A DNA stretch of 51,418 nucleotides from Comamonadaceae bacterium (GTDB lineage Bacteria > Pseudomonadota > Gammaproteobacteria > Burkholderiales > Burkholderiaceae_C), in contig CANGMW010000001.1 in the NCBI GenBank assembly GCA_947454695.1, positions 1 to 51,418 of the forward strand, in the 5' to 3' direction. The notes beneath the pieces are model-generated. The model searched no databases. It saw only the letters and a program-made list of their open reading frames with translations, and had not been told where the DNA came from. This document shows positions 1-24,434 of this stretch, piece by piece (positions within the stretch are counted from its first letter, which is position 1; each line of letters opens with the position of its first letter). Position numbers and translations under genes: made by a program.

Positions 1-399
1 TCCAGCCTTGAGATTCCTTTGAACACCCGCTCCACCTTGGATTTACTTCGCGATGCCTCTCCCATCAGCCTAGGGGAGATCGCCTGGCGCGTCGGCTTTG
101 TGATGGCGGCTTTCAACCTGCTGATCGTGGCGCTGGCTGCCACCCGGGTCAACCCCAGGGTGGGAAGAACTGGCAACTTGGTCTTTTCTTTGCTCTTGTT
201 TCAGGTGTATTTGAACTTTCTGACCTTGGGACAAAACTGGATTGCCTCCCAAGCGGTCAGTTTTTTAACCTTCAACGCGCTCTTGCATGGCGGCGCCTTT
301 TTATTGGCGCTGCTGTGGCTGGCCAAGGTACACCACAACTGGAGCTGGCGCAGTCTGTTCGCGCTTCAGCACCCTCCCATTCGCAAGGCAGTGGCATGA
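1..399 (+). CDS. lptF: LPS export ABC permease LptF, C-terminal fragment (5' end outside the window)
   Basis: Frame 1 is open from base 1 to TGA 397-399. The hydrophobic C-terminal helices are typical of YjgP/YjgQ permeases. The stop overlaps the ATG of the next YjgP/YjgQ gene (ATGA at 396-399), the usual lptF-lptG arrangement. Confidence 0.75.
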   Translation, partial: SSLEIPLNTRSTLDLLRDASPISLGEIAWRVGFVMAAFNLLIVALAATRVNPRVGRTGNLVFSLLLFQVYLNFLTLGQNWIASQAVSFLTFNALLHGGAFLLALLWLAKVHHNWSWRSLFALQHPPIRKAVA

Positions 400-1505
400 A
401 AACGCTTAGCCGATTGATTCATGCAGAGGTGTTTTCTGCGGTAGCGTTTGTGACGCTTGGATTTTTGGCGCTGTTTAGTTTTTTTGACTTCGTCGATCAG
501 TTGCCTTCGGTTGGCAAAGCGGGGACTTTGTCGGACTACAAATTGCCCCAAGCTGCCAGCTATGTGGCGCTGCTGATTCCCAATCACTTGTACGAATTGC
601 TGCCCATCACGGTATTGATCGGGACAATTTTTGTAATGACCCGACTCGCGCAAAGCTCTGAGTTCACGATTTTGCGCACCAGTGGCTTGGGCCCTTGGCG
701 CGCCTTGCGCACTTTGCTGGTGACCGGGGTCACGTTTGTGGTGGTGACCTTTGCCATCGGTGACTACTTGGCGCCTTGGGCGGACAAAACGGCCCAGTTA
801 CTCAAAGCGCGCTTTGAAGGCGCTTTAACGGTGGGTCAAACAGGTGCCTGGCTGCGCGAGAAACAAGCCTACGCGCAGTTTGCAGTGAATGTCAGCGCCC
901 TGGACGCCGATGGCAGCATGCGAGGTGTGCGTATTTTTGAATTTGACAACCAGAACTTGCTGGTTTCCATGACCCGTGCGCCCAAAGCCGAGTTTGGTCT
1001 CAACGATGCCTGGCTGCTCAAAGAAGCTCAGCGGACCGAGTTTCAAGCGCGGTCCGGCGGGTCATCCGAAATTAACCGATTCACCTCTGAAACGATGCGC
1101 TGGCCTACGGACATCACGGCGGAAATGGTGTCTGCGGCGGTGCTCAAACCCGAGCGCATGAGCACCATCGACTTATTTCAGTACATCCGTCACCTCAATG
1201 CCAATGGGCAGTCTGCCGAGCGCTATGAAATCGAATTCTGGAAGAAGGTTTTTTACCCCTTGAGTTGCCTGGTGATGGTGGTGCTGGCCTTGCCGTTTGC
1301 CTATTTGCATTTCCGCAACGAAGGCATTTCGATCTACGTGTTTGGTGGGGTGATGGCCGGTATCAGCTTCTTTTTCCTCAACAACGTGTTTGGCTACATC
1401 GGTGAGCTAAGGCATTGGGTTCCGTGGCTCACTGCAGCACTGCCCGGCATGATTTATTCCGTTATCTCACTCACTGCATTCGCGTGGCTGGTGCTGCGCC
1501 GATGA
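396..1505 (+). CDS. lptG: LPS export ABC permease LptG
   Basis: 369 aa with YjgP/YjgQ architecture: three N-terminal TM helices, a soluble middle domain and a C-terminal TM bundle. ATG 396 (MKTLSRLIH...) overlaps the lptF stop. The ORF-track start at 315 lies inside lptF and is rejected. Confidence 0.85.
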   Translation: MKTLSRLIHAEVFSAVAFVTLGFLALFSFFDFVDQLPSVGKAGTLSDYKLPQAASYVALLIPNHLYELLPITVLIGTIFVMTRLAQSSEFTILRTSGLGPWRALRTLLVTGVTFVVVTFAIGDYLAPWADKTAQLLKARFEGALTVGQTGAWLREKQAYAQFAVNVSALDADGSMRGVRIFEFDNQNLLVSMTRAPKAEFGLNDAWLLKEAQRTEFQARSGGSSEINRFTSETMRWPTDITAEMVSAAVLKPERMSTIDLFQYIRHLNANGQSAERYEIEFWKKVFYPLSCLVMVVLALPFAYLHFRNEGISIYVFGGVMAGISFFFLNNVFGYIGELRHWVPWLTAALPGMIYSVISLTAFAWLVLRR

Positions 1506-1530
1506 GGCCATCCATCACAAGCCAGTCCTT

Positions 1531-1905
1531 ATGAGCCAATCTACTTCCCCTCAGGGCGTCATCCTCTTTGCACACGGGTCCCGGGATCCTTTGTGGCACC
1601 GCCCGATGCAGCAGGTCGCCCAGCGCGCACTCGCCCTCAATCCCAAGACCGTCGTGGCCTGTGCGTACTTGGAGCTCACCTCGCCGGATTTGCCAAGTTG
1701 CGCCGCCGATATGGTCGCTCAGGGCGTGCAAGCCATCACGGTGGTGCCGATGTTTTTAGGCGTGGGCCGGCACGCCCGTGAAGATTTGCCACTTCTGATG
1801 CAAAGCATTCAAGCGCAATATCCCCAGGTGTCGTTCACGCTTCAAGCCGCCATTGGCGAGCACCCCTTGGTTGTGGAGTTGTTGGCCCAGATCGCTTTAT
1901 CCTGA
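1531..1905 (+). CDS. Small CbiX/SirB-type sirohydrochlorin chelatase family protein
   Basis: 124 aa. 'VILFAHGSRDPLW' followed by 'VVPMFLGVGRHAREDLP' is the CbiX(S) chelatase pattern (His in the HGSR motif, second-half F-L-x-x-G-x-H). Confidence 0.7.
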   Translation: MSQSTSPQGVILFAHGSRDPLWHRPMQQVAQRALALNPKTVVACAYLELTSPDLPSCAADMVAQGVQAITVVPMFLGVGRHAREDLPLLMQSIQAQYPQVSFTLQAAIGEHPLVVELLAQIALS

Positions 1906-1924
1906 CACCTCAAGCAAGCATGAA

Positions 1925-1952
1925 TTAGAACCACCTGCACGGTACGTACAAT
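1925..1952 (+). promoter_or_regulatory. Candidate sigma70 promoter for the PAP2/UbiA/GT-C/HAD operon (TTAGAA-16 nt-TACAAT)
   Basis: TTAGAA at 1925-1930 and TACAAT at 1947-1952 with a 16-nt spacer, in the 82-nt gap between the CbiX stop and ATG 1988. Read by eye only. Confidence 0.3.
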
Positions 1953-1987
1953 CCCGCAAGCCCTTCGGCCACTGGGCTCTCCCATTC

Positions 1988-2680
1988 ATGACATCCAAAC
2001 CTTCAAGCCAATCCAACTTCTTGCTGCTCGTGCTGGCGTCTTCGCTGGTGGTGGCCCTTTTGCCCGTGCTGTGGCCGCAAATCGATTTGCTTGTGGCTGG
2101 TTTCTTTTTAAAGTCCCACCCTGAGTTGCAAACAAACCCCGGCGTTTGGGTGAATCTGATCAATGAATTCACCCCGGACTTGTTTCGCAGCGTGGCCATC
2201 GCCTTGCTGATTGGCTGGCTACTGGTGGTGCTGAGCCGCCGCTGGAAGCGTTCAGCTTTGGCATTGGCATTTGTCGGCTTTTCATTGTTGCTGGGGCCGG
2301 GTCTGGCCACCTGGGCGGTTAAAGAACACCAGTTGCGCGCGCGCCCCTTTGACGTGGTGGAGTTTGGCGGGCAACGGCAGTTCACGCCGGCCTTGGAGCA
2401 AGCCAATCAATGCAACGTGAATTGCGCTTTTGTCAGTGGCCATGTGGCCTGTGGTTTTTTCTTCGCCTCGCTCATGCTGCTGGATCCGCGGCGACGGCGC
2501 TGGTGGCTAGCATCTGGCGTGGTTGCAGGCCTCGTCATTGGCTATGCGCGCATGTCGGTCGGCGCGCATTGGCTCAGCGACGTGTTGTGGGCGTTTCCCA
2601 TCACCCTGGCCAGCAGTTGGCTGGTCTGGCGTGTACTGGTGGTGTTCTATAAAAATGAATTGCCCCGAGAATTGGCATAA
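1988..2680 (+). CDS. PAP2-family (type 2 phosphatidic acid / polyprenyl phosphate) phosphatase, integral membrane
   Basis: All three PAP2 motifs are present: K-x6-RP (KEHQLRARP), SGH (FVSGHVA) and R-x5-H-x3-D (ARMSVGAHWLSD), with several TM helices. Start moved to ATG 1988 (MTSKPSS...) because the 1853 start overlaps CbiX. Confidence 0.85.
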   Translation: MTSKPSSQSNFLLLVLASSLVVALLPVLWPQIDLLVAGFFLKSHPELQTNPGVWVNLINEFTPDLFRSVAIALLIGWLLVVLSRRWKRSALALAFVGFSLLLGPGLATWAVKEHQLRARPFDVVEFGGQRQFTPALEQANQCNVNCAFVSGHVACGFFFASLMLLDPRRRRWWLASGVVAGLVIGYARMSVGAHWLSDVLWAFPITLASSWLVWRVLVVFYKNELPRELA

Positions 2681-2683
2681 ATC

Positions 2684-3550
2684 ATGACTTCTCCTTTGGC
2701 CATGGCCCGATCTTTGGTGGTGTTGATGCGCCCGCATCAATGGCTGAAAAACGTCTTTGTGTTCGCGGGTTTGTTGTTCAGCCCCAACTGGCGTGATGGG
2801 GCCCTGATGGGTCCGATCCTGAGTGCCTTTGCTGCCTTTTGCTGCTTTTCAAGTTTGGTTTACATCATCAATGACTGGCGTGACCGGTCCAGCGACGCAC
2901 AGCATCCCGAAAAACGTCTGCGGCCCTTGGCCAGTGGCGCGGTGCCTTTGTCACTGGCTTTTGTTTTAGCCAGTGCTTTGCTCTTTGCCGGATTGGGTTT
3001 GGCGGCGGGCAACACCCCCTTGCTGGGGCTGCTGGCTGTTTATGTGGCCTTGAACCTGGCTTACTCCTGGGGGCTCAAACACGTTCCGGTGGTGGATGTG
3101 TCCATCATCGCCAGTGGCTTCATGTTGCGCTTGCTGGCGGGCACGCTGGCGGTGGGTATTCCGCCCTCACGATGGCTTTTGCTCACGGGACTTTTCATTG
3201 CCTTGTTTTTGGGTTTTTCCAAACGCAAGGCCGAAAGTTTTCATGACGCGGCACTGCAACGTCATGTCATGCAGCATTACCCCGCATCTCTGCTGGACAC
3301 CTATGTGGCCGTCACCATGACGGCCACTCTGATGACCTACAGCCTGTATGCGACCAGCCCGGAGACCCTGTTGCTCCACGGTGAGCGGCTGGTCTACACC
3401 GTGCCGGTGGTGATCTTTGGCATGCTGCGTTATGCCTATCAAGTCCAGCGTGGTCGCGGTGAAGACGTCGCCCGTGATCTGCTTCGCGATCCTTGGATCT
3501 TGCTCGCCTTAATGTTTTGGCTGCTGATTTTCTTGTTCCCTCGTTTTTGA
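2684..3550 (+). CDS. UbiA-superfamily polyprenyl-phosphate 5-phosphoribosyltransferase (Rv3806c / DPPR synthase-like)
   Basis: 288 aa polytopic protein. 'RPHQWLKN', the Asp-rich motif NDWRDRSSDAQHPEKRLRPLASG, 'GLKHVPVVD', 'KRKAES' and the C-terminal 'LRYAYQVQRGRGEDVARDLLRD' parallel my recollection of mycobacterial UbiA Rv3806c (NDVRDVEADREHPTKRFRP...). The start lies 4 nt after the PAP2 stop. Confidence 0.8.
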   Translation: MTSPLAMARSLVVLMRPHQWLKNVFVFAGLLFSPNWRDGALMGPILSAFAAFCCFSSLVYIINDWRDRSSDAQHPEKRLRPLASGAVPLSLAFVLASALLFAGLGLAAGNTPLLGLLAVYVALNLAYSWGLKHVPVVDVSIIASGFMLRLLAGTLAVGIPPSRWLLLTGLFIALFLGFSKRKAESFHDAALQRHVMQHYPASLLDTYVAVTMTATLMTYSLYATSPETLLLHGERLVYTVPVVIFGMLRYAYQVQRGRGEDVARDLLRDPWILLALMFWLLIFLFPRF

Positions 3551-3561
3551 ACGTCAGTCAC

Positions 3562-5136
3562 ATGGATCCCGTTGCCATGAGCAAGCCAAGCGTCGTCCAT
3601 CTTCCCGACATGTCTAAGCCCCGGCTGATGCGCTGGCTCCTGCTCGTTGGTTTGTCGGCGTTCTTGCTGCGCCTTTGGATCTCCATGGCCTTGCCAGTGA
3701 CCGGGGACGAGGCTTATTTTTATTGGTGGGGTATTTTTCGTGACTGGGGCTATTACGACCATCCGCCTATGGCCGGCTGGTGGATGAGCGCTATGCAGAC
3801 CACGCTGGGGCATGCCCCGTGGGCGATTCGTTTACCGGCTGTGCTCTTGCCTGTGGCGATGGGTGCGGTCATCTGGTGGACCTTTTTGCCCCTGGACCGG
3901 GACCGCGCCGGCTGGGCTGTGCTGTTGTTCTGGCTGGCGCCGCTGAACTGGCTCAATGCCTTGATCACCACCGACACGCCGCTGATGTTCTGGTCGCTGT
4001 TGTCGATGGCCTGCCTGGTGCGCGCCGAACTCGTTCCCAAAGACCATGCGCCGCGATGGGGTCTGTACACCGCCAGCGGCCTGTTTCTGAGTTTGGCCTT
4101 CCTGTCTAAATATTTTGCCGTGGTACTGGGGTTTGCCTACGTCGTGTACTTTGTCTTGTACCGGCGTGATCGTTGGCCCGCGCTGTTGCTGTTGTGCTTG
4201 TGTGCCCTGCCCGGACCTTTGATCAACTTGGCCTGGAATGCCTCACATGGCTGGGCGAACATCATGTTCAACGTGTTTAACCGACATCAAAGTTCCGGGG
4301 TTGAGCTGCACAAGCCGCTGCTTTACTTAGCCATGCTGGCCTATTTGGTCACACCGGGCGCGCTTTGGTTGATCTTCAAGCATCGGCGGGTGTGGCGTGA
4401 TGCCTGGGGTTCCAAGCCGGCAGTTTCAAAACTGGTGGTGTGTTTGTTGGTGGTACCCCTGGTGTTTTTTGGATGCTTGTCTTTGAAGAAGGTGGTGGGC
4501 TTGCATTGGGTGTTTTCTTTTTACCCGATGCTCTTCGTCTTCATGGCGTTCAGCTTGCCCAAGGCGAGCTTGAAACGATGTGCTCAGGCATTGGCGGCAT
4601 TTACCGCCTTACACGTGTTGATCGTGGGGCTAATCGCAACCACGTCATTGGAACAGTGGCAAGGTAAGTCCCACTACTTTTCACTTGTCCGCGCCTTTCG
4701 TACTGCCCAAATCCTCGAAAAATTCGATTCTCCCGGGACCGTTTTGATGGCAGACGCCTACTCGCCCGCTTCGGTTTACGGCTATGTGCGTGAGCGCTAT
4801 GTGCCGGTCTTTGGCCCAGGCAGTTTTCACGCGCGGCAAGATGATTTTGAAACCGACTTTTCACAATTTCAAGGTCAAACCATCCGTGTGCTGCTGTCCG
4901 ATCCAGCCGTGTTGTCCGACTTTGCGCCCTACTTTGATTCGGTGAAAGCCGTCCAGATTGAGCAAGACGGCGCAACGTTTTACGGCGTAGAAGGCGTCAA
5001 CTTCAACTATCCCGCCTACCGTGATGGTGTGTTGCGTTGGGTGTACCAGCGCTACTACAACATCCCCAGCTGGTTACCCATGACAGACTGCCCGTTTTGT
5101 CGCAAAGTATGTGGCGAACCGAGGTGTGCGCCATGA
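3562..5136 (+). CDS. GT-C fold glycosyltransferase (ArnT / PMT_2, GT39/GT83-like), polyprenyl-phosphate-sugar dependent
   Basis: About 11 TM helices. The first loop carries 'PVTGDEAYFYWWG' and 'GYYDHPPMAGWW' (the DE / DHPP signature of ArnT/PMT-type GT-C enzymes). A soluble C-terminal domain of about 150 aa follows. The start is uncertain (ATG 3562, 3577 or 3610); the ORF-track start 3493 overlaps the upstream gene. Confidence 0.8.
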   Translation: MDPVAMSKPSVVHLPDMSKPRLMRWLLLVGLSAFLLRLWISMALPVTGDEAYFYWWGIFRDWGYYDHPPMAGWWMSAMQTTLGHAPWAIRLPAVLLPVAMGAVIWWTFLPLDRDRAGWAVLLFWLAPLNWLNALITTDTPLMFWSLLSMACLVRAELVPKDHAPRWGLYTASGLFLSLAFLSKYFAVVLGFAYVVYFVLYRRDRWPALLLLCLCALPGPLINLAWNASHGWANIMFNVFNRHQSSGVELHKPLLYLAMLAYLVTPGALWLIFKHRRVWRDAWGSKPAVSKLVVCLLVVPLVFFGCLSLKKVVGLHWVFSFYPMLFVFMAFSLPKASLKRCAQALAAFTALHVLIVGLIATTSLEQWQGKSHYFSLVRAFRTAQILEKFDSPGTVLMADAYSPASVYGYVRERYVPVFGPGSFHARQDDFETDFSQFQGQTIRVLLSDPAVLSDFAPYFDSVKAVQIEQDGATFYGVEGVNFNYPAYRDGVLRWVYQRYYNIPSWLPMTDCPFCRKVCGEPRCAP

Positions 5137-5789
5137 ACGCACCAACGCCGACCTTGATGAATCCAAGTGCTGAGCGCGTGGTGATCGCGGCCTTTGATTT
5201 TGATGGCACCTTGACGCGGGGCGACACCTTGATCCCCTTTTTGCGTCGCAGTCTGGGCCTCGGGCTGTTTTGCCGAGCCCTGGTCTTGAGTTCGCCTTGG
5301 CTCATGGCTTACCTGTTGCGCTTGATCAGCAACGAAAGGGCCAAAGCCCGTTTGCTGCGCGTGAGTGTGGCAGGTTGGTCCCGACAGCAGGCATTGCTCC
5401 GGGCTGAACAGTTCGTCAGGCAAGCTCTGCCCGCCATGTGGCGTGGCGCGGCTTTGCAACAACTGCGCGACCACCAGCAACGCGGTCACCGGTGTGTGCT
5501 CGTCAGTGCTTCGCCCGATCTTTATCTGGAAGCGGTGGCACGGACTTTGCGCGTCGATGGTTTGATCTGCACCCGCATGGCGGTCGATCACGGCTTGTAC
5601 ACCGGTGACCTGTCCACCCCGAATTGTTATGGCCCGCAAAAAGTGATCCGCTTGGAAGCCTGGCTGCGCGACCATATCGGCGCTCAAGCCTTTGAGTTGT
5701 ACGCCTATGGCGACTCAGCGGGTGACCGCGAGCTGCTGGCGATTGCCGACCACGCCTGGCTTCGAGGACGTCCTCAGGGGGGAAAGTGA
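5133..5789 (+). CDS. HAD-IB family hydrolase (phosphatase)
   Basis: HAD motif I 'AAFDFDGTLT', motif II 'VLVSASP', motif IV 'YGDSAGDRELL'. ATG 5133 overlaps the GT-C stop (ATGA 5133-5136). Confidence 0.8.
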   Translation: MNAPTPTLMNPSAERVVIAAFDFDGTLTRGDTLIPFLRRSLGLGLFCRALVLSSPWLMAYLLRLISNERAKARLLRVSVAGWSRQQALLRAEQFVRQALPAMWRGAALQQLRDHQQRGHRCVLVSASPDLYLEAVARTLRVDGLICTRMAVDHGLYTGDLSTPNCYGPQKVIRLEAWLRDHIGAQAFELYAYGDSAGDRELLAIADHAWLRGRPQGGK

Positions 5790-5831
5790 TTGGTCGGGCA
5801 TAATGAAGGCCAGTTTTAGCTGGATTTCGAT

Positions 5832-6785
5832 ATGAACCTTCACCAATTCCGATTTGTCCAGGAAGCGGCCCGACACAATTTGAACCTGACCGAGGCGGCC
5901 AAAGCACTGCACACCTCGCAGCCGGGGGTGTCCAAGGCCATCATCGAGCTGGAAGAGGAATTGGGCATCGAGATTTTTGCCCGTCACGGCAAACGACTCA
6001 AACGTATCACCGAGCCAGGCCAGCATGTGCTCAAGAGCATCGAGATCGTGATGCGTGAACTGGGCAACCTCAAGCGCATCGGCGAGCAGTACAGCGCGCA
6101 GGACAACGGCACCTTGTCGATCGCCACCACCCACACCCAGGCCCGCTATGTGCTGCCCGAACCAGTGGCCAAATTGCGCGCGGCCTACCCCAAAGTCAAT
6201 CTGAGCCTGCACCAGGGCACACCCGATCAAGTCGCGCGCATGCTGATCGACGATGTGGCCGAAATCGGCATCGCCACCGAGTCCTTGTCGGATTACAGCG
6301 AACTCGTTACCCTGCCCTGCTACGAGTGGCAGCATGTGCTGGTGTTGCCGGCCGACCACCCCTTGGCGGGCAAAGCCCGGCTCACCCTGGAAGACATCGC
6401 CGCCGAGCCGATCATCACCTACCACCCGTCTTTCACCGGCCGCACCCGGATCGACAACGCGTTTGCCGCGCGCAAACTTCAGCCAAGGATTGCCCTGGAA
6501 GCCATTGATTCCGATGTGATCAAGACCTACGTCAAGTTGGGCATGGGCATTGGTATCGTGGCGGAAATGTCGGTGCGTGAACTGAGCGACAAAGGCACAG
6601 ACGGTGAACTGGTGATCCGTCCTTTGGGCCAACTTTTTGGTCAGAACGTGACCCGGGTCGCGTTCAAGCGCGGGGCCTATTTGCGCAATTTTGTTTTTGA
6701 TTTCGCTGAGCTATTGAGTGATCGCCTCACCCGCGATCTGGTCGCGCGTGCCATGACCGGGCATGTGAACGACTACGAGCTTTGA
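5832..6785 (+). CDS. cysB: LysR-family transcriptional regulator, CysB/Cbl type
   Basis: The N-terminus 'MNLHQFRFVQEAARHNLNLTEAAKALHTSQPGVSKAIIELEEELGIEIF' is the characteristic CysB HTH. 317 aa, with a type-2 periplasmic-binding-fold effector domain. Confidence 0.85.
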   Translation: MNLHQFRFVQEAARHNLNLTEAAKALHTSQPGVSKAIIELEEELGIEIFARHGKRLKRITEPGQHVLKSIEIVMRELGNLKRIGEQYSAQDNGTLSIATTHTQARYVLPEPVAKLRAAYPKVNLSLHQGTPDQVARMLIDDVAEIGIATESLSDYSELVTLPCYEWQHVLVLPADHPLAGKARLTLEDIAAEPIITYHPSFTGRTRIDNAFAARKLQPRIALEAIDSDVIKTYVKLGMGIGIVAEMSVRELSDKGTDGELVIRPLGQLFGQNVTRVAFKRGAYLRNFVFDFAELLSDRLTRDLVARAMTGHVNDYEL

Positions 6786-6837
6786 ACCTCCTTTCGCCGC
6801 CGCCACTTCTACACCACTCACTTCCCGCTGACGCACC

Positions 6838-7986
6838 ATGACGCCCCATCTCGACTCCCGTTTGCCCAAGGTTGGCACCACCATCTTCACCGTCATGTCG
6901 GGCCTGGCGACTGAAAAAGGTGCGGTCAATCTGGGACAAGGATTCCCCGACTTCAACTGTGACCCGCGCTTAGTTCACGATGTGACGCACGCCATGACCG
7001 AAGGGCTTAACCAGTACCCGCCGATGACCGGCGTTCCGGTTTTGCGGGACGCGATTGCGGCCAAAATCCAAAACCTGTACGGACGCCGCTACGACCCGGT
7101 GACTGAAATCACCGTCACGGCCGGCGCCACACAAGCGATTCTCACGGCCATTTTGGCCATCGTGCACCCGGGCGATGAGGTGATTGTTCTGGAGCCTTGC
7201 TACGACAGCTATGTACCCAATATTGAACTCGCCGGTGGCGTGGTGGTGCGCGTGCCGCTCACGCCCGGCACCTTCCGGCCTGACTTTGACAAAATCTCGG
7301 CGGCCCTCTCCCCTAGGACCCGCGCCATCATCGTCAACTCCCCCCACAATCCCAGCGGCACGGTCTGGACCGAAGATGAGATGCGCCAGCTGCAGGACCT
7401 CCTGGCACCCACCAATGTGTTCTTGATTTCCGACGAAGTCTATGAGCACATGGTGTTCGATGGTCGCGCCCATCAAAGCGCTGCGCGTTTCCCGGAATTG
7501 GCCGAGCGAACCTTCATCGTCTCCAGTTTCGGCAAGACTTACCATGTGACCGGTTGGAAAATCGGCTTTGTCGCCGCCCCGGCCGCCATGTCGGCCGAAT
7601 TCAGAAAAGTGCACCAGTTCAATGTGTTCACGGTGAACACACCGGTGCAATTTGGCCTGGCCAGCTTCATGGCCGACCCCAAGCCATACCTGGAACTGCC
7701 CGCCTTTTACCAGCGCAAGCGCGACCTGTTCCGCGAAGGCTTGCAGCGCACACGCTTCAAACTGCTGCCCAGCGAGGGCACCTATTTCCAGTGCGTGGAC
7801 ATCTCCGCCGTGAGTGATCTGAAGGAAGCAGAATTTTGCATGTGGCTCACCACCGAGATCGGCGTGGCGGCTATTCCCCTGTCGGCCTTTTACGATGCCG
7901 GCTTTGATCAGCGGGTGGTGCGTTTTTGCTTTGCCAAGAAAGACGAAACTTTGCAACTCGCCCTGGAGCGGCTGGCCAAGTTATAG
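6838..7986 (+). CDS. PLP-dependent class I aminotransferase, YbdL (methionine aminotransferase)-like
   Basis: 'LPKVGTTIFTVMSGLATEKGAVNLGQGFPDF', 'NSPHNPSG' and the PLP lysine in 'SSFGKTYHVTGWK'. Confidence 0.85.
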   Translation: MTPHLDSRLPKVGTTIFTVMSGLATEKGAVNLGQGFPDFNCDPRLVHDVTHAMTEGLNQYPPMTGVPVLRDAIAAKIQNLYGRRYDPVTEITVTAGATQAILTAILAIVHPGDEVIVLEPCYDSYVPNIELAGGVVVRVPLTPGTFRPDFDKISAALSPRTRAIIVNSPHNPSGTVWTEDEMRQLQDLLAPTNVFLISDEVYEHMVFDGRAHQSAARFPELAERTFIVSSFGKTYHVTGWKIGFVAAPAAMSAEFRKVHQFNVFTVNTPVQFGLASFMADPKPYLELPAFYQRKRDLFREGLQRTRFKLLPSEGTYFQCVDISAVSDLKEAEFCMWLTTEIGVAAIPLSAFYDAGFDQRVVRFCFAKKDETLQLALERLAKL

Positions 7987-14448: not shown

Positions 14449-15380
14449 GCGAGTTCAGCCAAACGCCGGTTCTGCCGCGCGGTCAGGCGGGCGATGTCGG
14501 CCACATCCTGTGCCGACAGCTTGGGGCCGGGTTTGCGCACAGCGGCACTGGCAATCACCCCGCGTTCTGCCAGGATGTGCTTGCGCACCGCCAGGCCGAT
14601 GCCGGTTTGCTGCTCATAACGAGCCAAGGGCAAGTAAGCATCGAACAAGTCATGGGCGCGTTCCGTCTCACCACGGGCATGCGCCGCGCACACCTCCACC
14701 ATCATTTCGGGATAAGCAAAACCGGTCATCGCGCCATCGGCACCGCGGCTGAGTTCTTCGGGCAGAAACAGTCCGCCGCCGTTGCCCGTCAGGATGGACA
14801 CGCGGCGCAACTCGCCTTTTTGGCTGGCGGCCCGAAGCGCCGAGAGCTTGGTCAGACCGGGAGAGTCTTCGTGCTTGAGCATCACGCAGTGCGGTGAGCT
14901 CTGGATGATCTTCATGATCACCCCGGTCGACATTTGAACGCCGGTAGCCACCGGGTGGTCTTGCAAGACCCAGGGCACCTGGGGCCCCAGTGTTTCGTTG
15001 ACCATGTCGAAATAGGCCAGGATTTGGTCATCGGTGCGCACGGTCGAGGGCGGCGCCACCATCACGCCCGCTGCACCCAAGTCCATCACACTTTGGGTGA
15101 GTTCCCGCATAGGCGCAAAGCCCGGGGCCGAGGCCCCGACCACCACCGGCACGCGCCCTTGCACGCGCGCGAGCACCTGCTGGACAAACTGACGTGATTC
15201 CTCCATGGTGAGCTTGGGCGCTTCGCCCATGATGCCCAGCACGGTCAGGCCGGTGACGCCTTTGTCCAGGCAAAAATCCACCATGCGGTCGGTGCTGGAC
15301 AAATCCAATGCCCCGCTGTCGGTGAAGGGGGTGACCGTGATCAGGTACACCCCGCGGGCATCGGCATTCAAGCTATTCAT
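14445..15380 (-). CDS. Dihydrodipicolinate synthase (DapA/NAL) family lyase
   Basis: 311 aa with a DHDPS-family N-terminus ('GVYLITVTPFTDSGALDL...MVDFCLDKGVTGLTVLGIMGE'). The specific substrate cannot be assigned. Confidence 0.8.
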   Translation of the reverse strand: MNSLNADARGVYLITVTPFTDSGALDLSSTDRMVDFCLDKGVTGLTVLGIMGEAPKLTMEESRQFVQQVLARVQGRVPVVVGASAPGFAPMRELTQSVMDLGAAGVMVAPPSTVRTDDQILAYFDMVNETLGPQVPWVLQDHPVATGVQMSTGVIMKIIQSSPHCVMLKHEDSPGLTKLSALRAASQKGELRRVSILTGNGGGLFLPEELSRGADGAMTGFAYPEMMVEVCAAHARGETERAHDLFDAYLPLARYEQQTGIGLAVRKHILAERGVIASAAVRKPGPKLSAQDVADIARLTARQNRRLAELA

Positions 15381-15404
15381 ATCGCAACGCGTGAAGATAG
15401 GCTT

Positions 15405-15917
15405 TCAGGCCTTGTTGAAGAGACGGCGCCCACACACCACCAGGCTGATCAGCCCGATCACGGCAAAAACCAGCAACGACCAGTTGGCGATAGAGCCGCC
15501 CAGAAAAGTCCAGTCCACCTTGGAGCAGTCGCCGCTGCCTTTGAGCAGCATGGGTACGACGCGTTGGAGCGGAAAGGCTTCGATCATGCCGTACAGGTCC
15601 CGCCCGCAACTCACCGCCTCGGGCGGGTACCACTGCAGCCAAGTCTGGCGCGCCGCCACAAACGCGCCCGCGCCAGCCAGGACAGCGATCAATGCCGCCG
15701 CACTCAGGTGAACGCCGGGACGCGCGCTCAGGGCGGCCAGGCCCGCAACCAGGGCAATCAGGAGCAATGCATAGCGCTGAACAATGCACATCGGGCAGGG
15801 CTCCAAGCCCACGACATGCTGCAAATACATGCCAAAGCCCAGCATGCCGATGCCGACGGCGCACAAGGCCAGCAAAGCGCGACGCGGGTAATGGTCCAGT
15901 GCTTGAATAAACATCAC
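15405..15917 (-). CDS. dsbB: Disulfide bond formation protein B
   Basis: 170 aa with 4 TM helices, the CxxC 'CPMCIVQRY' in the first periplasmic loop and a second Cys pair in the second loop. Confidence 0.85.
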   Translation of the reverse strand: MMFIQALDHYPRRALLALCAVGIGMLGFGMYLQHVVGLEPCPMCIVQRYALLLIALVAGLAALSARPGVHLSAAALIAVLAGAGAFVAARQTWLQWYPPEAVSCGRDLYGMIEAFPLQRVVPMLLKGSGDCSKVDWTFLGGSIANWSLLVFAVIGLISLVVCGRRLFNKA

Positions 15918-16136
15918 ATTCCCTTTTCAATTGAACGACTGGCGGGCAGACAATTCGGCCGCCTCGATAGCCACAATCACTATTGTTGCGCAGGAATGGC
16001 TTGCCATCGCCGATATTTAGCCTCGGGCAAGCGCTTGTGGTGCCTTGCGTCCCTAGACGCGCTCGGGTGATTTGAAACGAATAAGATAGGGCCAAGGCAA
16101 TTTGCCATCTGTTTCAAGATCATCAAGAGGTATTTC

Positions 16137-19159: not shown

Positions 19160-20989
19160 ATGTACCAATACACCGACTTTGACCGTGAATTTGTTCGTAA
19201 CCGGGCGGCACAATTCCGCGACCAACTCGAGCGCAACCTGGCCGGCCAACTTAGCGATGAGGCGTTTCGCCCTTTGCGTTTGCAAAACGGCTGGTACGTT
19301 CAGCGCCATGCCCCCATGCTGCGTGTGGCCGTGCCCTACGGCGAACTCTCCAGCGCGCAAGTCCGTGTGCTCGCCCGTATCGCCCGCGAATTTGACCAAC
19401 CCTCGCATGCCGTTTTTCAAGGTGCGGTAGCCGCGCAAAACAAACTGGGCGACATTCAGTTGCGCGATGGCAAAGCCATTGGCAGCCAGTTGACCACCGG
19501 CTATGCCCACTTCACGACACGCCAGAACGTGCAGTTCAACTGGATTCCTTTGGACAAAAGTGCGGACGTCATGGACCTGCTGGCCAGTGTGGACATGCAT
19601 GGCATCCAGACCAGCGGCAACTGCATTCGCAACATCACCACCGACGAGCGCGCGGGTGTCGCTGCCGATGAGGTGGCCGATCCACGGCCCTATGCCGAGA
19701 TCATGCGTCAGTGGAGCACGCTGCACCCCGAGTTTGCTTTTCTGCCGCGCAAGTTCAAGATCGCCATCACCGGCGCCAAAGAGGACCGCGCCGCCACCGC
19801 TTGGCACGATGTGGGCTTGCACTTGGTCCAAGACGCCGCGGGTACCGTGGGCTTTAAGGTGCTGGTGGGCGGCGGCATGGGTCGTACGCCGGTGATTGCG
19901 ACCACCATCCGGTCGTTCCTGCCGGCCGATCAAATCCTGAACTACCTCGAAGCGGTGGTGCGTGTCTACAACCGCTGGGGCCGTCGCGACAATATGTACA
20001 AAGCGCGCATCAAGATCCTGGTGAAGGCCGAAGGTCAGCGCTACATCGACGAAGTCGAAGCCGAGTACCAGGACATTGTGAACAAAGACGGCGCACCGCA
20101 CACCATCACGGCGGTGGAGCTGGCCCGGGTCAGCGCCTCGTTTCAGGCACCGGCCTTCGCCCAAGCCGCCCAAGCCGCACAAGCCGCCCAAGTCGCCCAA
20201 GTCGCCGAGACGAAGCCGCCAGCTGCTGACCCTGAGTATGTGCGTTGGCTCAAACAGAATGTGGCCGCCCATAAAAACCCGGCGCTGCGCGCTGTCACCC
20301 TGTCATTCAAGCGTGTGGGGCAAGCCCCGGGTGACGCCACCGCCGACCAACTCGACGCTGTGGCTGAACTTGTGGATCGTTTCAGCGCCGGCGAAGTACG
20401 TGTCACGCACGACCAGAACCTGGTCCTGCCCTGGGTACGTGCCGACGAGCTGCCGCTGCTGTGGCAACAAGCCCGCCAACTCGGTCTGGCGCGATCCAAC
20501 ATCCGCTTGCTGACCGACATGATTGCCTGCCCCGGCGGGGATTTTTGCGATCTGGCCAACGCGCGCTCCATTCCGATCGCCCAAGCCATCACCGAGCGCT
20601 ACGAAGACCTGGACGAGCTGCACGATCTGGGCGAAATCGACCTGCACATCAGCGGTTGCATCAACTCCTGCGGTCACCACCACAGCGGGCACATCGGTAT
20701 TTTGGGCGTGGACAAAGACGGGCGCGAGTGGTACCAGGTCACCTTGGGTGGCTCGGACGGCTCGGCCCTGAGTGGCGCACCGGGTGCGGGCAAAGTGGTC
20801 GGCCCGTCCTTCTCAGCGGCCGAAGTGCCCGATGTGATTGAAGCACTGCTGGACACCTACCGCGCGCAACGCTCGTGCGGCGAGCCCTTGATTGATACCT
20901 TGCGACGTGTCGGCGCCGAGCCGTTCAAAGTGGCTGCCAATGCGGTTCGTCAAGACACCGCCAGACACAGTGCGGATGCATCGGCCTGA
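19160..20989 (+). CDS. cysI: Assimilatory sulfite reductase hemoprotein (nitrite/sulfite reductase family, siroheme-[4Fe-4S])
   Basis: 609 aa with two NIR_SIR ferredoxin-like/4Fe-4S halves. The cluster/siroheme Cys motif is 'CPGGDFCDLA...SGCINSCGHHH'. Sits in an operon with cysH, cysD and cysN. Confidence 0.9.
   Translation: MYQYTDFDREFVRNRAAQFRDQLERNLAGQLSDEAFRPLRLQNGWYVQRHAPMLRVAVPYGELSSAQVRVLARIAREFDQPSHAVFQGAVAAQNKLGDIQLRDGKAIGSQLTTGYAHFTTRQNVQFNWIPLDKSADVMDLLASVDMHGIQTSGNCIRNITTDERAGVAADEVADPRPYAEIMRQWSTLHPEFAFLPRKFKIAITGAKEDRAATAWHDVGLHLVQDAAGTVGFKVLVGGGMGRTPVIATTIRSFLPADQILNYLEAVVRVYNRWGRRDNMYKARIKILVKAEGQRYIDEVEAEYQDIVNKDGAPHTITAVELARVSASFQAPAFAQAAQAAQAAQVAQVAETKPPAADPEYVRWLKQNVAAHKNPALRAVTLSFKRVGQAPGDATADQLDAVAELVDRFSAGEVRVTHDQNLVLPWVRADELPLLWQQARQLGLARSNIRLLTDMIACPGGDFCDLANARSIPIAQAITERYEDLDELHDLGEIDLHISGCINSCGHHHSGHIGILGVDKDGREWYQVTLGGSDGSALSGAPGAGKVVGPSFSAAEVPDVIEALLDTYRAQRSCGEPLIDTLRRVGAEPFKVAANAVRQDTARHSADASA
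20159..20203 (+). repeat. Five tandem copies of a 9-bp unit (GCCCAAGCC and variants) inside cysI
   Basis: gcccaagcc gcccaagcc gcacaagcc gcccaagtc gcccaagtc encodes AQA-AQA-AQA-AQV-AQV, in the linker between the two halves of CysI. Confidence 0.9.
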
Positions 20990-21008
20990 GCGGATTAAAG
21001 AAAAGACC

Positions 21009-21389
21009 ATGAAACTTATCTCTGTGACCCAACACCAGGCCAGCCCGAGCGATGCTTCGGTGCTGACGTTGGCCAACGATGTCGATCCCCGCACCCTTGC
21101 TTTGCAAGGCATCACCCGGATTGATCTGCATTTCCCCAAATTCACCGATGGACGGGCTTTCAGCCAGGCTTATTTAATTCGCCGTCGTCTGGGATTCACC
21201 GGAGAAATCCGCGCCACCGGCGATGTGCTGGTCGATCAACTGCAGCAGATGGCGCGCAGCGGCTTTGATACGGCCGTGCTGGCCGACGGCCAGGACGCGG
21301 AGATTGCGCAGCGGCAGTTGAGCCGCTACAAAGACTTCTACCAAGGCGATGCGGTGCACGCCCAACCGCATTTTGGGGAAGCCGCCTGA
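21009..21389 (+). CDS. DUF934-family protein (uncharacterised partner of bacterial sulfite reductase operons)
   Basis: 126 aa starting at ATG 21009 (MKLISVTQH...), 19 nt after the cysI stop. Its stop overlaps the cysH ATG (TGATG). 'FPKFTDGRAFSQAYLIRRRLGFTGEIRATGDVLVDQL' matches what I recall of DUF934. Confidence 0.7.
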   Translation: MKLISVTQHQASPSDASVLTLANDVDPRTLALQGITRIDLHFPKFTDGRAFSQAYLIRRRLGFTGEIRATGDVLVDQLQQMARSGFDTAVLADGQDAEIAQRQLSRYKDFYQGDAVHAQPHFGEAA

Positions 21390-22147
21390 TGTCTGCCATT
21401 GAACTCAACGCACGCGCCAGCGCCAGTTTTTCAGCCAAGTTGGAACACACCCGCCAACTGCTCGCTCAGATTGCCCTTGACTACGCAGCCCCGCACGGCA
21501 GTGCCGCGCCTGGGGTCAGCCTGGCCTGCAGCTTAGGTGCAGAAGACATGGTCTTGGCCCACCTGATCAACAGCGCGCAAGTCCAGATCGACATCTTCGT
21601 CCTGGAAACCGGCATGCTCAACCCGCAAACGCTGGCGCTGCTGGCGCAACTCAAGGCCGATTCCTTCAACGCGGTGCAGGTTTTCCAACCGGTGCAGACG
21701 GCCGTGGTCGAGTTCGTTCAACGCGAAGGGAAGGACGCGATGTACAAGTCGATCGAGCTGCGCAAAGCCTGCTGCCACATCCGCAAAATGGAGCCGCTGG
21801 AGCGTGCGCTCAAAGGCAAGAAAGCGTGGATCACCGGTTTGCGCCGGGAGCAGTCGGGCGCCCGTGCCGAAGTGCCCTTTGTGGATGAAAGCGATGCCAA
21901 GCGCGTCAAATTCAACCCGCTGGCCGACTGGACCTGGGGTGACGTCTGGCACTACATCGCCCAACACCAGGTGGCCTACAACGCTTTGCATGACGAGTTT
22001 TTCCCCAGCATCGGCTGCGCCCCCTGCACCCGGGCCATTGCCATGGGTGAAGACTTCCGCGCCGGGCGCTGGTGGTGGGAAGACGAAGCCGCCAAAGAAT
22101 GCGGCTTGCACGTCAAAACCTCCGAATTGAAAACGGGCCACGCATGA
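21389..22147 (+). CDS. cysH: Adenylyl-sulfate (APS) / PAPS reductase, thioredoxin-dependent, Fe-S type
   Basis: PAPS_reduct fold. It has the catalytic C-terminal 'ECGLH' and the extra Cys pairs 'ACCHIRKMEPL' and 'SIGCAPCT', which mark [4Fe-4S] APS reductases. Confidence 0.9.
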   Translation: MSAIELNARASASFSAKLEHTRQLLAQIALDYAAPHGSAAPGVSLACSLGAEDMVLAHLINSAQVQIDIFVLETGMLNPQTLALLAQLKADSFNAVQVFQPVQTAVVEFVQREGKDAMYKSIELRKACCHIRKMEPLERALKGKKAWITGLRREQSGARAEVPFVDESDAKRVKFNPLADWTWGDVWHYIAQHQVAYNALHDEFFPSIGCAPCTRAIAMGEDFRAGRWWWEDEAAKECGLHVKTSELKTGHA

Positions 22148-23103
22148 ACGCCATCTCCGAACACGAACGACTCACGCACGCCATGACGACATCGCACGCC
22201 CCTACCCTGAGCAACGCGCACTTAGACGCGCTCGAAGAAGAAACCATTTTCATCCTGCGCGAAGTGGCCGCAGTTTTTGAGCGCCCTACTTTGCTGTTCT
22301 CTGGCGGCAAAGATTCGCTGGTGCTGCTCAAATGTGCCGAGAAAGCCTTTGGTTCGGGCCGCTTGCCCTACCCCTTGCTGATGATCGACACGGGCCACAA
22401 CTTCCCCGAAGTCACCGATTTCCGGGATTTCCGCGCCAAAGAACTGAACGCCGAGTTGATCGTTCGCAACGTGGAAGACTCCATGGCGCGCGGCACGGTG
22501 CGCCTCGCGCATCCCGGTGAGAGCCGCAATGTGCACCAGTCGGTCACCCTGCTCGAAGCGATTGAAGAGTTCCGTTTTGACGCGCTGATCGGCGGCGCCC
22601 GCCGGGACGAAGAAAAGGCCCGTGCCAAGGAGCGCATTTTTTCGCACCGTGACAGCTTCGGCCAATGGCAACCTAAGGCGCAGCGGCCTGAGTTGTGGAC
22701 CCTCTTTAACACCCGGCTGCAACCGGGCGAGCATTTCCGTGTCTTCCCCATTTCCAACTGGACCGAGCTGGATGTGTGGCAATACATTGAGCGCGAGAAC
22801 ATCGCCCTGCCCTCCATCTACTACACGCATGAGCGTCAGGTCGTGGACCGTAAAGGCCTCTTGGTGCCCGTCACCGAACTCACGCCGCCGCGCGAAGGTG
22901 AAACGGTGCAAACCCGCCAGGTGCGTTTTCGCACGGTGGGCGACATCACCTGCACCTGCCCGGTGGAAAGCACGGCCGCCACGGCCGCCGATATCGTGAT
23001 TGAAACGCTGGCCGCCGACGTGAGCGAACGCGGCGCGACCCGCATGGATGACAAAACCTCGGAAGCATCCATGGAAAAACGCAAGAAAGACGGTTACTTC
23101 TGA
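22144..23103 (+). CDS. cysD: Sulfate adenylyltransferase subunit 2
   Basis: 'LDALEEETIFILREVAAVFERPTLLFSGGKDSLVLL' is the PP-loop and 'DGYF' the C-terminus. ATG 22144 overlaps the cysH stop (ATGA). Confidence 0.95.
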   Translation: MNAISEHERLTHAMTTSHAPTLSNAHLDALEEETIFILREVAAVFERPTLLFSGGKDSLVLLKCAEKAFGSGRLPYPLLMIDTGHNFPEVTDFRDFRAKELNAELIVRNVEDSMARGTVRLAHPGESRNVHQSVTLLEAIEEFRFDALIGGARRDEEKARAKERIFSHRDSFGQWQPKAQRPELWTLFNTRLQPGEHFRVFPISNWTELDVWQYIERENIALPSIYYTHERQVVDRKGLLVPVTELTPPREGETVQTRQVRFRTVGDITCTCPVESTAATAADIVIETLAADVSERGATRMDDKTSEASMEKRKKDGYF

Positions 23104-24434
23104 TGTCCAGCCCCACTCTTTTGAATAAGCAAAACGCGGCTGCGCCTGTGGCTCAAGATGCGGATGTGCATTCCGCCCTCAAGTTCATCACCTGCGGCAG
23201 CGTCGATGATGGCAAGAGCACCTTGATCGGCCGCCTGCTGGTGGACACCAAGGCGGTGTTGCAAGACCACTTGGCCGGCGTGCAGCGCCAAGGCGAAACC
23301 GACCTGGCCCTGCTCACCGATGGCTTGAGCGCCGAGCGCGAGCAAGGCATCACGATCGACGTGGCGTACCGCTACTTCAGCACGGAAAATCGCAAGTTCA
23401 TCATTGGCGACGCGCCAGGTCATGAGCAGTACACGCGCAATATGGTGACCGCAGCCTCCAGCGCCGATGCCGCCGTGGTTCTGGTCGACGCGACCAAACT
23501 GGATTGGCAAAACGCCGCGCTGCCCTTGTTGGTACAAACCCGTCGCCACTCGTTGTTGCTCAAACTGCTGCGCGTGTCCTCCATTGTGTTCGCCGTGAAC
23601 AAGCTCGATGCCGTCGCCGATGCGGCGCTCGCCTTCAAGAACATCCAGTCGGCCTTGAATGAATTTGCCCGCAGTGCCGGCATCGCGGTCACCGCGGTGG
23701 TCCCCTTGTCCGCGCTCAAGGGCTGGAATGTGGTGGACGCTGCGCCAGATGCCCACTGGTGTGGCTACCAAGGCCCCACGCTGCTGCAAATTCTGGAGGC
23801 ATTGCCCGTCACCGGCCCTGATCGCGATGTGGCATTCACTTTCCCCGTTCAGTGGGTCGAGAAATTTTCCGCCAGCAGCGACACCAGCCAAGGCCGTCGC
23901 GTGTTCTGGGGACGCGTGGCCACCGGGCAGGTGGTTCCCGGCCAAACCGTCACCATCATGCCCAGCGGTCAGACCGCGACCGTGGCCAAGGTTTTGAACC
24001 ATGTTCGTCAAGCCACATCGGTCGCCAGTGGCCACAGCGCTGGCATTGTGCTGGACCGCGAGGTGGACGTCTCCCGGGGTGACTGGCTGCTGACTGAGCC
24101 CGCCGAGGGCCCTGAACTGCCGCGTTTGCGCGAAATCAGCACGACCCTGGCTTGGATGGACGATGAGCCGCTGGTAGCAGGCCGCGTGTACTGGGCTTTG
24201 CATGGTCACCGCTGGGTCAAAGCGAAAATCAAGCGCATCGTGCACCGCCTCAATATCAACACCCTGGCCGAGGAAGATGCCTCGCAGTTAGAGCCCAATG
24301 CCATTGGTCATGTGGAGATTGCCCTCCAAGAGCCCTTGCTGGCCCTGCCCTACGCCCAATCGCGGGTTTTAGGCGCCCTGATTTTGGTAGACACCGCCAC
24401 ACACAAAACCTCCGCCGCCTTGATGCTGAATTGA
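23103..24434 (+). CDS. cysN: Sulfate adenylyltransferase subunit 1 (GTPase), without a fused APS kinase domain
   Basis: G1 'GSVDDGKSTLIGRLL', G3 'DAPGHEQY', G4 'NKLD'. At 443 aa it is the GTPase plus beta-barrel domains only. ATG overlaps the cysD stop (TGATG). Confidence 0.9.
   Translation: MSSPTLLNKQNAAAPVAQDADVHSALKFITCGSVDDGKSTLIGRLLVDTKAVLQDHLAGVQRQGETDLALLTDGLSAEREQGITIDVAYRYFSTENRKFIIGDAPGHEQYTRNMVTAASSADAAVVLVDATKLDWQNAALPLLVQTRRHSLLLKLLRVSSIVFAVNKLDAVADAALAFKNIQSALNEFARSAGIAVTAVVPLSALKGWNVVDAAPDAHWCGYQGPTLLQILEALPVTGPDRDVAFTFPVQWVEKFSASSDTSQGRRVFWGRVATGQVVPGQTVTIMPSGQTATVAKVLNHVRQATSVASGHSAGIVLDREVDVSRGDWLLTEPAEGPELPRLREISTTLAWMDDEPLVAGRVYWALHGHRWVKAKIKRIVHRLNINTLAEEDASQLEPNAIGHVEIALQEPLLALPYAQSRVLGALILVDTATHKTSAALMLN

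Follow-up and report, generated by a model that had tools for sequence, protein, structure and literature searches.

Which molecule of the cell envelope would a Comamonadaceae bacterium, a betaproteobacterium of the freshwater type, decorate with a lipid-linked pentose, and with which genes? The question is raised by a four-gene operon on contig CANGMW010000001.1 of the Comamonadaceae bacterium assembly GCA_947454695.1, of which positions 1-51,418 of the forward strand were analysed (this whole stretch of 51,418 nucleotides (nt) is referred to below as the window). The four genes are co-directional on the + strand and encode a PAP2-family membrane phosphatase of 230 amino acids (aa) (1988-2680; PF01569, E 1e-17), a 288-aa UbiA protein (2684-3550; PF01040, E 1.3e-22), a 519-aa GT-C fold glycosyltransferase (3577-5136; PMT_2 PF13231, E 2.4e-15; PMT PF02366, E 7e-9) and a stand-alone, cytoplasmic 218-aa HAD-IB phosphatase (5133-5789; PF12710, E 4.8e-40; TIGR01490, 141 bits). 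This gene content, and the catalytic or loop motifs of the first three products, had been proposed in an earlier note on the sequence and were borne out by the open reading frames (ORFs), the Pfam matches and the motifs themselves. We read the operon as an extracytoplasmic pentofuranosylation system of the kind described by Kelly et al. (PNAS 2024; PMC11127046), in which an undecaprenyl-phospho-ribose donor would be completed by a HAD 5'-phosphatase and used by an ArnT-like GT-C transferase, with lipopolysaccharide (LPS) as the favoured acceptor, and we give this reading a rough probability of 0.55.

Briefly, domains were called with Pfam and with NCBIfam at curated cut-offs, and structural relatives were sought by sequence and profile searches of the PDB and by Foldseek comparison of an AlphaFold2 model. 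Gene order was assessed in a scan of one genome per species, in which 500 genomes held a relative; the best 80 loci, all from Comamonadaceae, were analysed by mapping the window proteins onto them. A metagenome scan seeded with GT-C family members approximately 40% identical to the window protein returned 80 distant loci, giving 160 related loci altogether. The closest relatives used for comparison were loci L081 (GT-C 79% identical) and L082 (GT-C 100% identical).

The UbiA protein passed both NCBIfam models for decaprenyl-phosphoribose (DPPR) synthase, with 237.5 bits against NF008977 (cut-off 234) and 224.3 bits against NF008978 (cut-off 207), compared to 17-30 bits against the heme-o synthase, chlorophyll synthase and 4-hydroxybenzoate prenyltransferase models (23-30 bits for the heme-o and 4-hydroxybenzoate enzymes). 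A quinone or heme prenyltransferase, the assignment that the earlier note had singled out as the one to check for, was therefore rejected in favour of the DPPR-synthase assignment. In the PDB, the protein matched 8j8j (Rv3806c) at E 7.8e-38, and two cryo-EM entries of Rv3806c were its sole solved relatives, in keeping with the Rv3806c likeness first claimed for it. An alignment read against the account of Rv3806c in PMC10994848 showed that 11 of 13 residues for phosphoribosyl pyrophosphate (PRPP) and Mg are kept (R22, K28, Y70, N73, D74, D77, D81, K87, R90, Y138 and K143), including the NDxxDxxxD motif, and that the other two differ conservatively (Q135 to N, Y157 to F); Phe at position 157 has been noted for some mycobacteria (PMC10994848). 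The UbiA protein is thus very probably, as judged from its sequence, a polyprenyl-phosphate 5-phosphoribosyltransferase (PPPRS) of the Rv3806c family that makes the donor lipid from PRPP. In Citrobacter-type systems, an enzyme of this family works with a HAD phosphatase, a flippase and a GT-C transferase (PMC11127046).

Two products of the operon are candidates for removing the 5'-phosphate from such a lipid, and gene order pointed to the HAD-IB protein. This protein has the DxDGT nucleophile motif (as DFDGT), with neither a transmembrane (TM) helix nor a signal peptide, and its gene followed that of the GT-C protein in 70-73 of the 80 Comamonadaceae loci, which makes it the conserved phosphatase partner rather than the extra hydrolase it had been taken for. 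Stand-alone HAD proteins encoded beside a PPPRS in other lineages fall into the same TIGR01490 subfamily and were homologous to it, namely those of Gallionellaceae (41% identity, E 3e-44), of a phage fragment (32%, E 9e-34) and of a Lactococcus plasmid (26%, E 1e-14), the last in a polysaccharide locus that runs membrane protein, PPPRS, HAD-IB, GtrA. The HAD domain of Citrobacter ORF15 performs the 5'-phosphate removal (PMC11127046). Because the window protein is a near-universal and soluble partner, is translationally coupled to the GT-C gene through their overlap, has PPPRS-adjacent homologues and follows the ORF15 precedent, we consider it the probable polyprenyl-phospho-ribose-5-phosphate 5'-phosphatase. 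The phage fragment is itself of interest: MT837543.1, from human faeces, is unannotated and encodes (L167, 898-5419) a PPPRS, a stand-alone HAD-IB protein, a 118-aa SMR/EamA protein, a short-chain dehydrogenase/reductase (SDR) epimerase and a 565-aa DUF6044 membrane protein. This compact pentofuranosylation cassette is possibly a seroconversion module and, by its content, suggests that DUF6044 might be a glycosyltransferase.

The other candidate is the PAP2 protein, which the earlier note had placed with the UbiA protein as the same pair that mycobacteria have in Rv3806c and Rv3807c; on that account PAP2 would take off the 5'-phosphate and the HAD-IB protein would be unrelated or auxiliary. 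The PAP2 gene does end 3 nt before the start of the UbiA gene, Mycobacteriales pair a PAP2 gene with DPPR synthase (as in a Rhodococcus locus), P. aeruginosa Pa5196 has an Rv3807c homologue, and a Marivivens plasmid carries a PPPRS gene beside a 'divergent PAP2'. However, the window PAP2 was not significantly similar to the Rhodococcus ruber PAP2 that occupies the Rv3807c position (best high-scoring segment pair 19 bits over 10 residues) or to the Marivivens protein, a DUF212 protein. The nearest NCBIfam families also differed, being undecaprenyl pyrophosphate phosphatases for the Rhodococcus protein and LpxF for that of the window. The best NCBIfam model for the latter was the LpxF lipid A 4'-phosphatase NF045633 (88.2 bits, E 6.8e-25, over the full length), which led all other curated families by about 20 orders of magnitude in E-value without reaching its cut-off of 400 bits, and homologues bear the JGI automatic name 'lipid A 4'-phosphatase'. 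All three PAP2 motifs are present (KX6RP as KEHQLRARP, SGH, and RX5HX3D as RMSVGAHWLSD). Hydropathy and the positive-inside rule put them on the other side of the membrane from the two K/R-rich loops, RRWKRS and DPRRRRW; the active site is thus predicted to open onto the periplasm, whereas the PRPP-dependent step is cytoplasmic.

The distribution of PAP2 tells the same way. The gene was found in 13 of the 80 loci, 12 of them among the 18 in which the module is linked to lptG and cbiX plus one other, and in none of the Polaromonas loci; it was missing from 67, six of which are lptG-linked, while the HAD-IB gene is nearly universal there. In locus L084, a PAP2 homologue with 64% identity (6125-7672) sits beside a second PAP2 gene and an MFS transporter gene, far from any UbiA/GT-C module, which indicates that this PAP2 subfamily exists independently of the module. 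We therefore regard an Rv3807c-like role for the PAP2 protein as improbable and describe it as LpxF-like and accessory, and we retain the HAD-IB protein as the conserved partner of the PPPRS. The Rhodococcus comparator comes from a 74-kb linear element named as a plasmid (pmega_4, NZ_CP145323.1; L173, 1318-7803), on which glf, a glycosyltransferase, the PAP2 and the DPPR synthase genes follow the arrangement of the arabinogalactan core; the next gene, at the position of mycobacterial aftB, is named 'flagellar motor control protein ZomB' and is probably mis-named.

Coupling of the donor pathway to the GT-C protein, as the earlier note had proposed, was well supported by gene order. The UbiA and GT-C genes were adjacent or nearly so in approximately 72 of the 80 Comamonadaceae loci; in the distant loci, the UbiA gene came directly after the GT-C gene in approximately 66 of 80, and a UbiA homologue was present anywhere in the locus in 68. 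Overall, the two were neighbours in approximately 140 of the 160 related loci. That the four genes are neighbours by synteny only, with UbiA and GT-C proteins acting on unrelated substrates, is thus a highly improbable account: the GT-C gene is unlinked from a UbiA gene in some genomes (L171, L172 and L160/L161), but elsewhere the adjacency occurs in two gene orders and in clades whose proteins are only approximately 40% identical, the module of Gallionellaceae is complete (GT-C, DprE1, DprE2, HAD, UbiA and a flippase-like gene), and the junctions in the window overlap or are very short. Of these junctions, the 3-nt spacer between the PAP2 and UbiA genes (2680/2684) and the 4-nt overlap of the GT-C and HAD genes (5136/5133; called independently in L082) had been given correctly in the earlier note, but the gap between the UbiA and GT-C genes is 26 nt rather than 11. 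Gene callers and 15 homologues placed the GT-C start at ATG 3577, and the upstream ATG at 3562 is not conserved in L081.

Around the paired genes, the accessory content varied among lineages. The core order in Comamonadaceae is UbiA, an approximately 330-aa membrane protein, GT-C and HAD-IB; the membrane protein belongs to the MprF flippase-domain family (PF03706 LPG_synthase_TM/TIGR00374) and, in 76 of the 79 loci that could be assessed, its gene separates UbiA from GT-C. No PF03706 homologue was present in the 51-kb window, nor in L081 and L082, which share its exact gene order, and Pfam scans of the remaining window ORFs gave no other flippase candidate. Nevertheless, dN/dS relative to L081 was 0.10 for PAP2, 0.08 for UbiA and 0.15 for GT-C at a dS of approximately 0.85-1.0; the flippase-less operon is under purifying selection and not decaying. 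P. aeruginosa Pa5196, likewise, has no known dedicated flippase, and loss of Rv3789 can be made good by ArnE/F. In the distant clade, aroG is followed by GT-C, UbiA/PPPRS and a gene for a cNMP-binding protein, and neither HAD nor flippase nor PAP2 genes are linked to them, which identifies the GT-C and PPPRS pair as the deeply conserved core, and two Burkholderiales metagenome-assembled genomes (MAGs) had only tgt-UbiA-GT-C-queA.

At the other extreme, a Gallionellaceae MAG (DATKTO010000014.1; L169, 4827-14078) encodes in one module the GT-C protein, a DprE1-like FAD_binding_4/ALO protein (454 aa), a DprE2-like adh_short protein (245 aa), a HAD protein (PF12710), the UbiA protein and an LPG_synthase_TM protein, with a GT9 heptosyltransferase gene and a second flippase-like gene just upstream. 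Sulfuriferula nivalis (AP021881.1; L168, 8001-12179) has GT-C, DprE1-like, DprE2-like and HAD genes, and an insertion sequence (Y2_Tnp plus integrase) separates HAD from UbiA. The window proteins were 50% (UbiA), 37% (GT-C) and 41% (HAD) identical to those of Gallionellaceae, and the flippase-like proteins of Polaromonas and Gallionellaceae were 34% identical to one another. With DprE1- and DprE2-like genes inside the relatives' modules, this family thus conforms to the 'auxiliary epimerase' principle set out by Kelly et al. A tblastn search with the Gallionellaceae DprE1- and DprE2-like proteins found no match in the window or the 160 loci, and Pfam scans of the window found neither a FAD_binding_4 gene nor a pathway-linked SDR gene. 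With no epimerase linked, ribofuranose would be the default sugar, and we somewhat favour ribose over an epimer as the sugar donated.

The GT-C protein was assigned chiefly by its fold. The protein had no NCBIfam match at E ≤ 0.01 and no match among PDB sequences, either as a single sequence or as a 25-member family profile. Its AlphaFold2 model (pLDDT 74, pTM 0.75) was closest by Foldseek to ArnT of Cupriavidus metallidurans (5ezm/5f15; E 3.6e-8, TM-score 0.60, full length, 562 aligned columns), with which it shares a TM core and a C-terminal periplasmic domain at 16% identity, ArnT being found by fold comparison only. AglB, PglB, OST and Pmt4 came next at E ~1e-4, four orders of magnitude behind in E-value, and AftB, AftA and EmbA ranked lower. 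The ArnT/PMT-like assignment of the earlier note is consistent with both this result and the Pfam matches. The family comprised 4294 clusters at 50% identity when counted at E ≤ 1e-3 and 224, aligned end to end, at E ≤ 1e-30. The DE and DHPP motifs are invariant throughout, and, numbered on P0256 (which heads alignment A2), the residues that never vary in the family are D43, E44, H61, W67, R83, K170, Y171, H301, W302, R417 and D420; among them are the DE pair that follows TM1, the DHPP His, the SKY and GLHW motifs and, in the C-terminal domain, an R..D pair. Named members came from Polaromonas, Curvibacter and Hylemonella and from Gallionellaceae, Sulfuriferula and other Nitrosomonadales, with isolated names from Sporomusaceae and Omnitrophota. 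Unusually long members (P0329, P0312 and others) were inspected for domain fusions that might point to partners, and none was informative. The protein thus belongs to a distinct and widespread family, with an ArnT-like fold as modelled and, presumably, transferase chemistry. Its C-terminus in the window (residues 505-517; 5089-5127) carries a four-cysteine motif, CPFCxxxCGxxRC, that is invariant in 15 Comamonadaceae homologues and not conserved in the wider family; lying at the end of the predicted periplasmic domain, it could form disulfides or bind metal.

A GT-C protein with PMT and PMT_2 matches and with Pmt4 and OST structures among its Foldseek matches might instead O-glycosylate periplasmic or surface proteins with pentofuranose, as TfpW of P. 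aeruginosa does on pilin or PMT enzymes on Ser/Thr. We consider this rather unlikely: ArnT was the better match by the margin given above and over the full length, the protein lacks the MIR domain of PMT and the TPR domain of TfpW, and genes for a pilin or another target are not linked to it, the sole T2SSE-type ATPase gene lying 42 kb away.

In the pentofuranosylation reading, the UbiA protein would transfer ribose 5-phosphate from PRPP to undecaprenyl phosphate (Und-P) at the cytoplasmic face, the well-supported first step, and the HAD-IB protein, rather than PAP2, would then remove the 5'-phosphate to give Und-P-beta-D-ribofuranose, as comparative genomics suggests. With no DprE1/DprE2-type or SDR epimerase linked, the sugar would remain ribose, whereas the relatives in Gallionellaceae and Sulfuriferula would make Und-P-arabinofuranose. 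The donor would be flipped to the periplasm, by the MprF-type protein in the relatives and presumably by an unlinked or promiscuous flippase in the lineage of the window, and there the GT-C protein, ArnT-like in its modelled fold, would place ribofuranose on a conserved envelope acceptor. The last step is the weakest: the acceptor would most likely be lipid A or the inner core of LPS, and the LpxF-like PAP2 could remove a lipid A phosphate, thereby freeing or creating the acceptor position.

Lipid A or core LPS is the acceptor that we favour, at slightly less than an even chance. The arguments for it are that ArnT is the best structural match over the full length, that an LpxF-like PAP2 with a predicted periplasm-facing active site is encoded in the operon 3 nt from UbiA, that the module occupies fixed housekeeping contexts rather than variable O-antigen or glycan clusters, that a GT9 heptosyltransferase gene lies beside the Gallionellaceae module, and that a D-arabinose-containing lipid A is on record for Rhodospirillum tenue. 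This betaproteobacterial lipid A was reportedly described by Tharanathan et al. in 1978, and arabinose has been reported in all Rhodocyclus tenuis LPS. A bolder proposal, to which we attach a low probability, is that the PPPRS and the ArnT-like GT-C family are the machinery that places D-pentofuranose on lipid A or the inner core in Betaproteobacteria, with PAP2 and the GT-C protein of the window swapping a lipid A phosphate for ribofuranose. If true, lipid A would carry a hitherto undescribed modification whose sugar comes from PRPP and not from a nucleotide sugar, and the epimerase-containing versions would account for D-arabinose-containing lipid A such as that of Rhodospirillum tenue.

The same donor pathway could instead serve a polysaccharide, that is, an O-antigen, capsule or exopolysaccharide side chain as in Citrobacter youngae, with PAP2 as a bystander or a recycler of the lipid carrier. 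The sole biochemically characterised Gram-negative precedent modifies O-antigen (PMC11127046), and the Lactococcus plasmid and Marivivens comparators lie among polysaccharide genes. On the other side, the module lies outside glycan clusters in the window and in most relatives, where its neighbours are lptG/cbiX/cysB, peptidase and TetR genes, tgt/queA or aroG; it is conserved across genera, which is untypical of a serotype-variable side-chain modification; and the GT-C protein is PMT_2 by Pfam with no carbohydrate-binding module, whereas ORF12 of Citrobacter is, by description, of the EpsG family. We hold a polysaccharide acceptor to be doubtful, though a stronger contender than protein glycosylation, and continue to prefer LPS.

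Several observations weigh against our reading of the operon as a whole. Its mechanistic steps are drawn from sequences and a structural model, and an ArnT-like fold at 16% identity, with ArnT undetected by sequence or profile, does not specify an acceptor. The PAP2 protein scored 88 bits where the LpxF cut-off is 400 and is absent from most loci, so that it may have only a chance connection with the pathway. Against the fused PRK08238 model, the HAD-IB protein gave only a weak match to the HAD half (E 8.6e-4), and the flippase-like gene seen in relatives has no counterpart in the window. The two-gene clade (aroG-GT-C-UbiA) is devoid of any linked phosphatase; there, unlinked enzymes could remove the 5'-phosphate, or ribose 5-phosphate itself could be transferred. 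Finally, an epimerase could be encoded outside the 51-kb window.

Compared to the three-component Citrobacter youngae O1/O2 systems for O-antigen pentofuranosylation, in which ORF15, ORF14 and ORF12 represent the PPPRS, HAD phosphatase, flippase and GT-C machinery (Kelly et al., PMC11127046), the operon is alike in its PRPP-dependent UbiA-family polyprenyl-phosphoribose synthase, its HAD-family phosphatase for the 5'-phosphate, its periplasmic GT-C transferase and, in the Gallionellaceae relatives, its optional epimerases that change the pentose. It differs in that the HAD protein is a separate gene product and not an N-terminal domain, that the GT-C protein is PMT_2/ArnT-like and not GT136 (ORF12 being EpsG-like with a C-terminal carbohydrate-binding module, a comparison made by description only), that the relatives' flippase is of the MprF type (PF03706) and not MATE or SMR, with none in the window, that the operon lies outside an O-antigen cluster and that an LpxF-like PAP2 has been added. 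With the mycobacterial decaprenyl-phospho-arabinose pathway (Rv3806c, Rv3807c, DprE1/DprE2, Emb/Aft) it shares a clear Rv3806c homologue with a conserved PRPP site and the logic of a lipid-linked pentofuranose passed to a GT-C enzyme outside the membrane, but the window has no Rv3807c-type PAP2 and no DprE1/DprE2, its GT-C protein is ArnT-like with AftB, AftA and EmbA ranking far lower, and undecaprenyl phosphate presumably takes the place of decaprenyl phosphate as the carrier.

ArnT (GT83) resembles the GT-C protein in fold, including the C-terminal periplasmic domain, and in its polyprenyl-phosphate sugar donor; it differs in sequence to the point of escaping detection, the window has no arnBCADEF genes, and the donor here would derive from PRPP and not from a nucleotide sugar. 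The Rhizobium LpxE/LpxF plus RgtD route, in which a sugar replaces a lipid A phosphate, finds a parallel in the co-operonic LpxF-like phosphatase predicted to face the periplasm. Pilin D-arabinofuranosylation in Pa5196 (TfpW, PsPA7_6245-6251) is another Gram-negative use of an Rv3806c homologue and a GT-C enzyme with no dedicated flippase identified, but Pa5196 has DprE1/DprE2, an Rv3807c homologue, TPR repeats in TfpW and linkage to pilA, and the window has none of these.

The statement in the earlier note that no LPS or envelope modification with such a gene set had been characterised does not hold, since the O-antigen systems were already published (PMC11127046). A literature search for a module combining a PPPRS with an ArnT-like GT-C protein found no study, and the supplement of Kelly et al. 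makes no mention of Polaromonas, Curvibacter, PAP2 or MprF. The general mechanism is therefore already known, and what is new is best described as a large betaproteobacterial family of PPPRS plus ArnT-like GT-C modules with variable accessories, spanning hundreds of species in Comamonadaceae, Gallionellaceae, Sulfuriferula and others. If our reading is right, pentofuranosylation would not be confined to decorating O-antigens in a serotype-specific manner but would also be the task of a conserved module of the chromosome, the pathway would gain another GT-C family and another flippase family, and it would be widespread among Betaproteobacteria of the environment, such as Curvibacter, Polaromonas and the iron-oxidising Gallionellaceae. 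Should LPS be the acceptor, lipid A or core would gain a new modification derived from PRPP, which could bear on phage receptors, host recognition and resistance to cationic peptides; Curvibacter, for instance, is the main symbiont of Hydra. The natural variants, with or without the flippase-like, HAD, PAP2 and DprE1/DprE2 genes, form a comparative set for defining the essential parts of the module.

Upstream of the operon on the + strand lie the 3' end of lptF (1-399), lptG (396-1505; TIGR04408 LptG, 344.8 bits) and a gene for a 124-aa CbiX-type chelatase (1531-1905; PF01903, E 1.7e-24), and downstream it is bounded by a CysB-family LysR regulator gene (5832-6785, +; NF009327, 450.8 bits). 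The operon had been described as directly downstream of lptFG, which is true only approximately, as cbiX intervenes between lptG and PAP2. The lptFG adjacency is also lineage-specific and not a feature of the system: lptG-cbiX linkage was seen in 18 of the 80 loci, confined to a Curvibacter/Hylemonella-like lineage in which lptG-cbiX...cysB forms a conserved backbone around the operon. We considered the adjacency as functional evidence and rejected it as weak, the module lying elsewhere in the Polaromonas, tgt/queA and aroG lineages. In two metagenome contigs (L160, 596-4431; L161, 286-3851), a distant GT-C relative (36% identity) has homologues of lptG and cysB as its immediate neighbours on either side and lacks an adjacent UbiA gene, which shows the lptG...cysB slot occupied by the GT-C family in a second lineage.

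The neighbours of the operon in the window (lptFG, cbiX, cysB, an aminotransferase gene and hrpA) include no polysaccharide biosynthesis cluster, and the base composition of the window showed no island signature. Promoter and terminator consensus scans of 1-7000 returned the same counts as shuffled sequence, so that the operon boundaries rest on spacing and synteny alone. The remainder of the 51-kb window is housekeeping in character, with genes for sulfate assimilation and thiamine together with glnD, ligA, smc and dapD/dapE. Near the gene for the small CbiX-type chelatase lie both cysB and a block of sulfate-assimilation genes (19160-24434), which encodes a sulfite reductase, two proteins with PAPS_reduct domains and a CysN-like GTPase; this setting is consistent with a siroheme ferrochelatase role for the chelatase rather than one in cobalamin synthesis. 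Three ORFs, 15373-16095 (-), 26182-27078 (+) and 41121-42155 (-), of 240, 298 and 344 aa, had no Pfam match at E ≤ 1e-5. The last of these sits between ligA and a 1171-aa smc-like ORF, a position at which zipA is often found.

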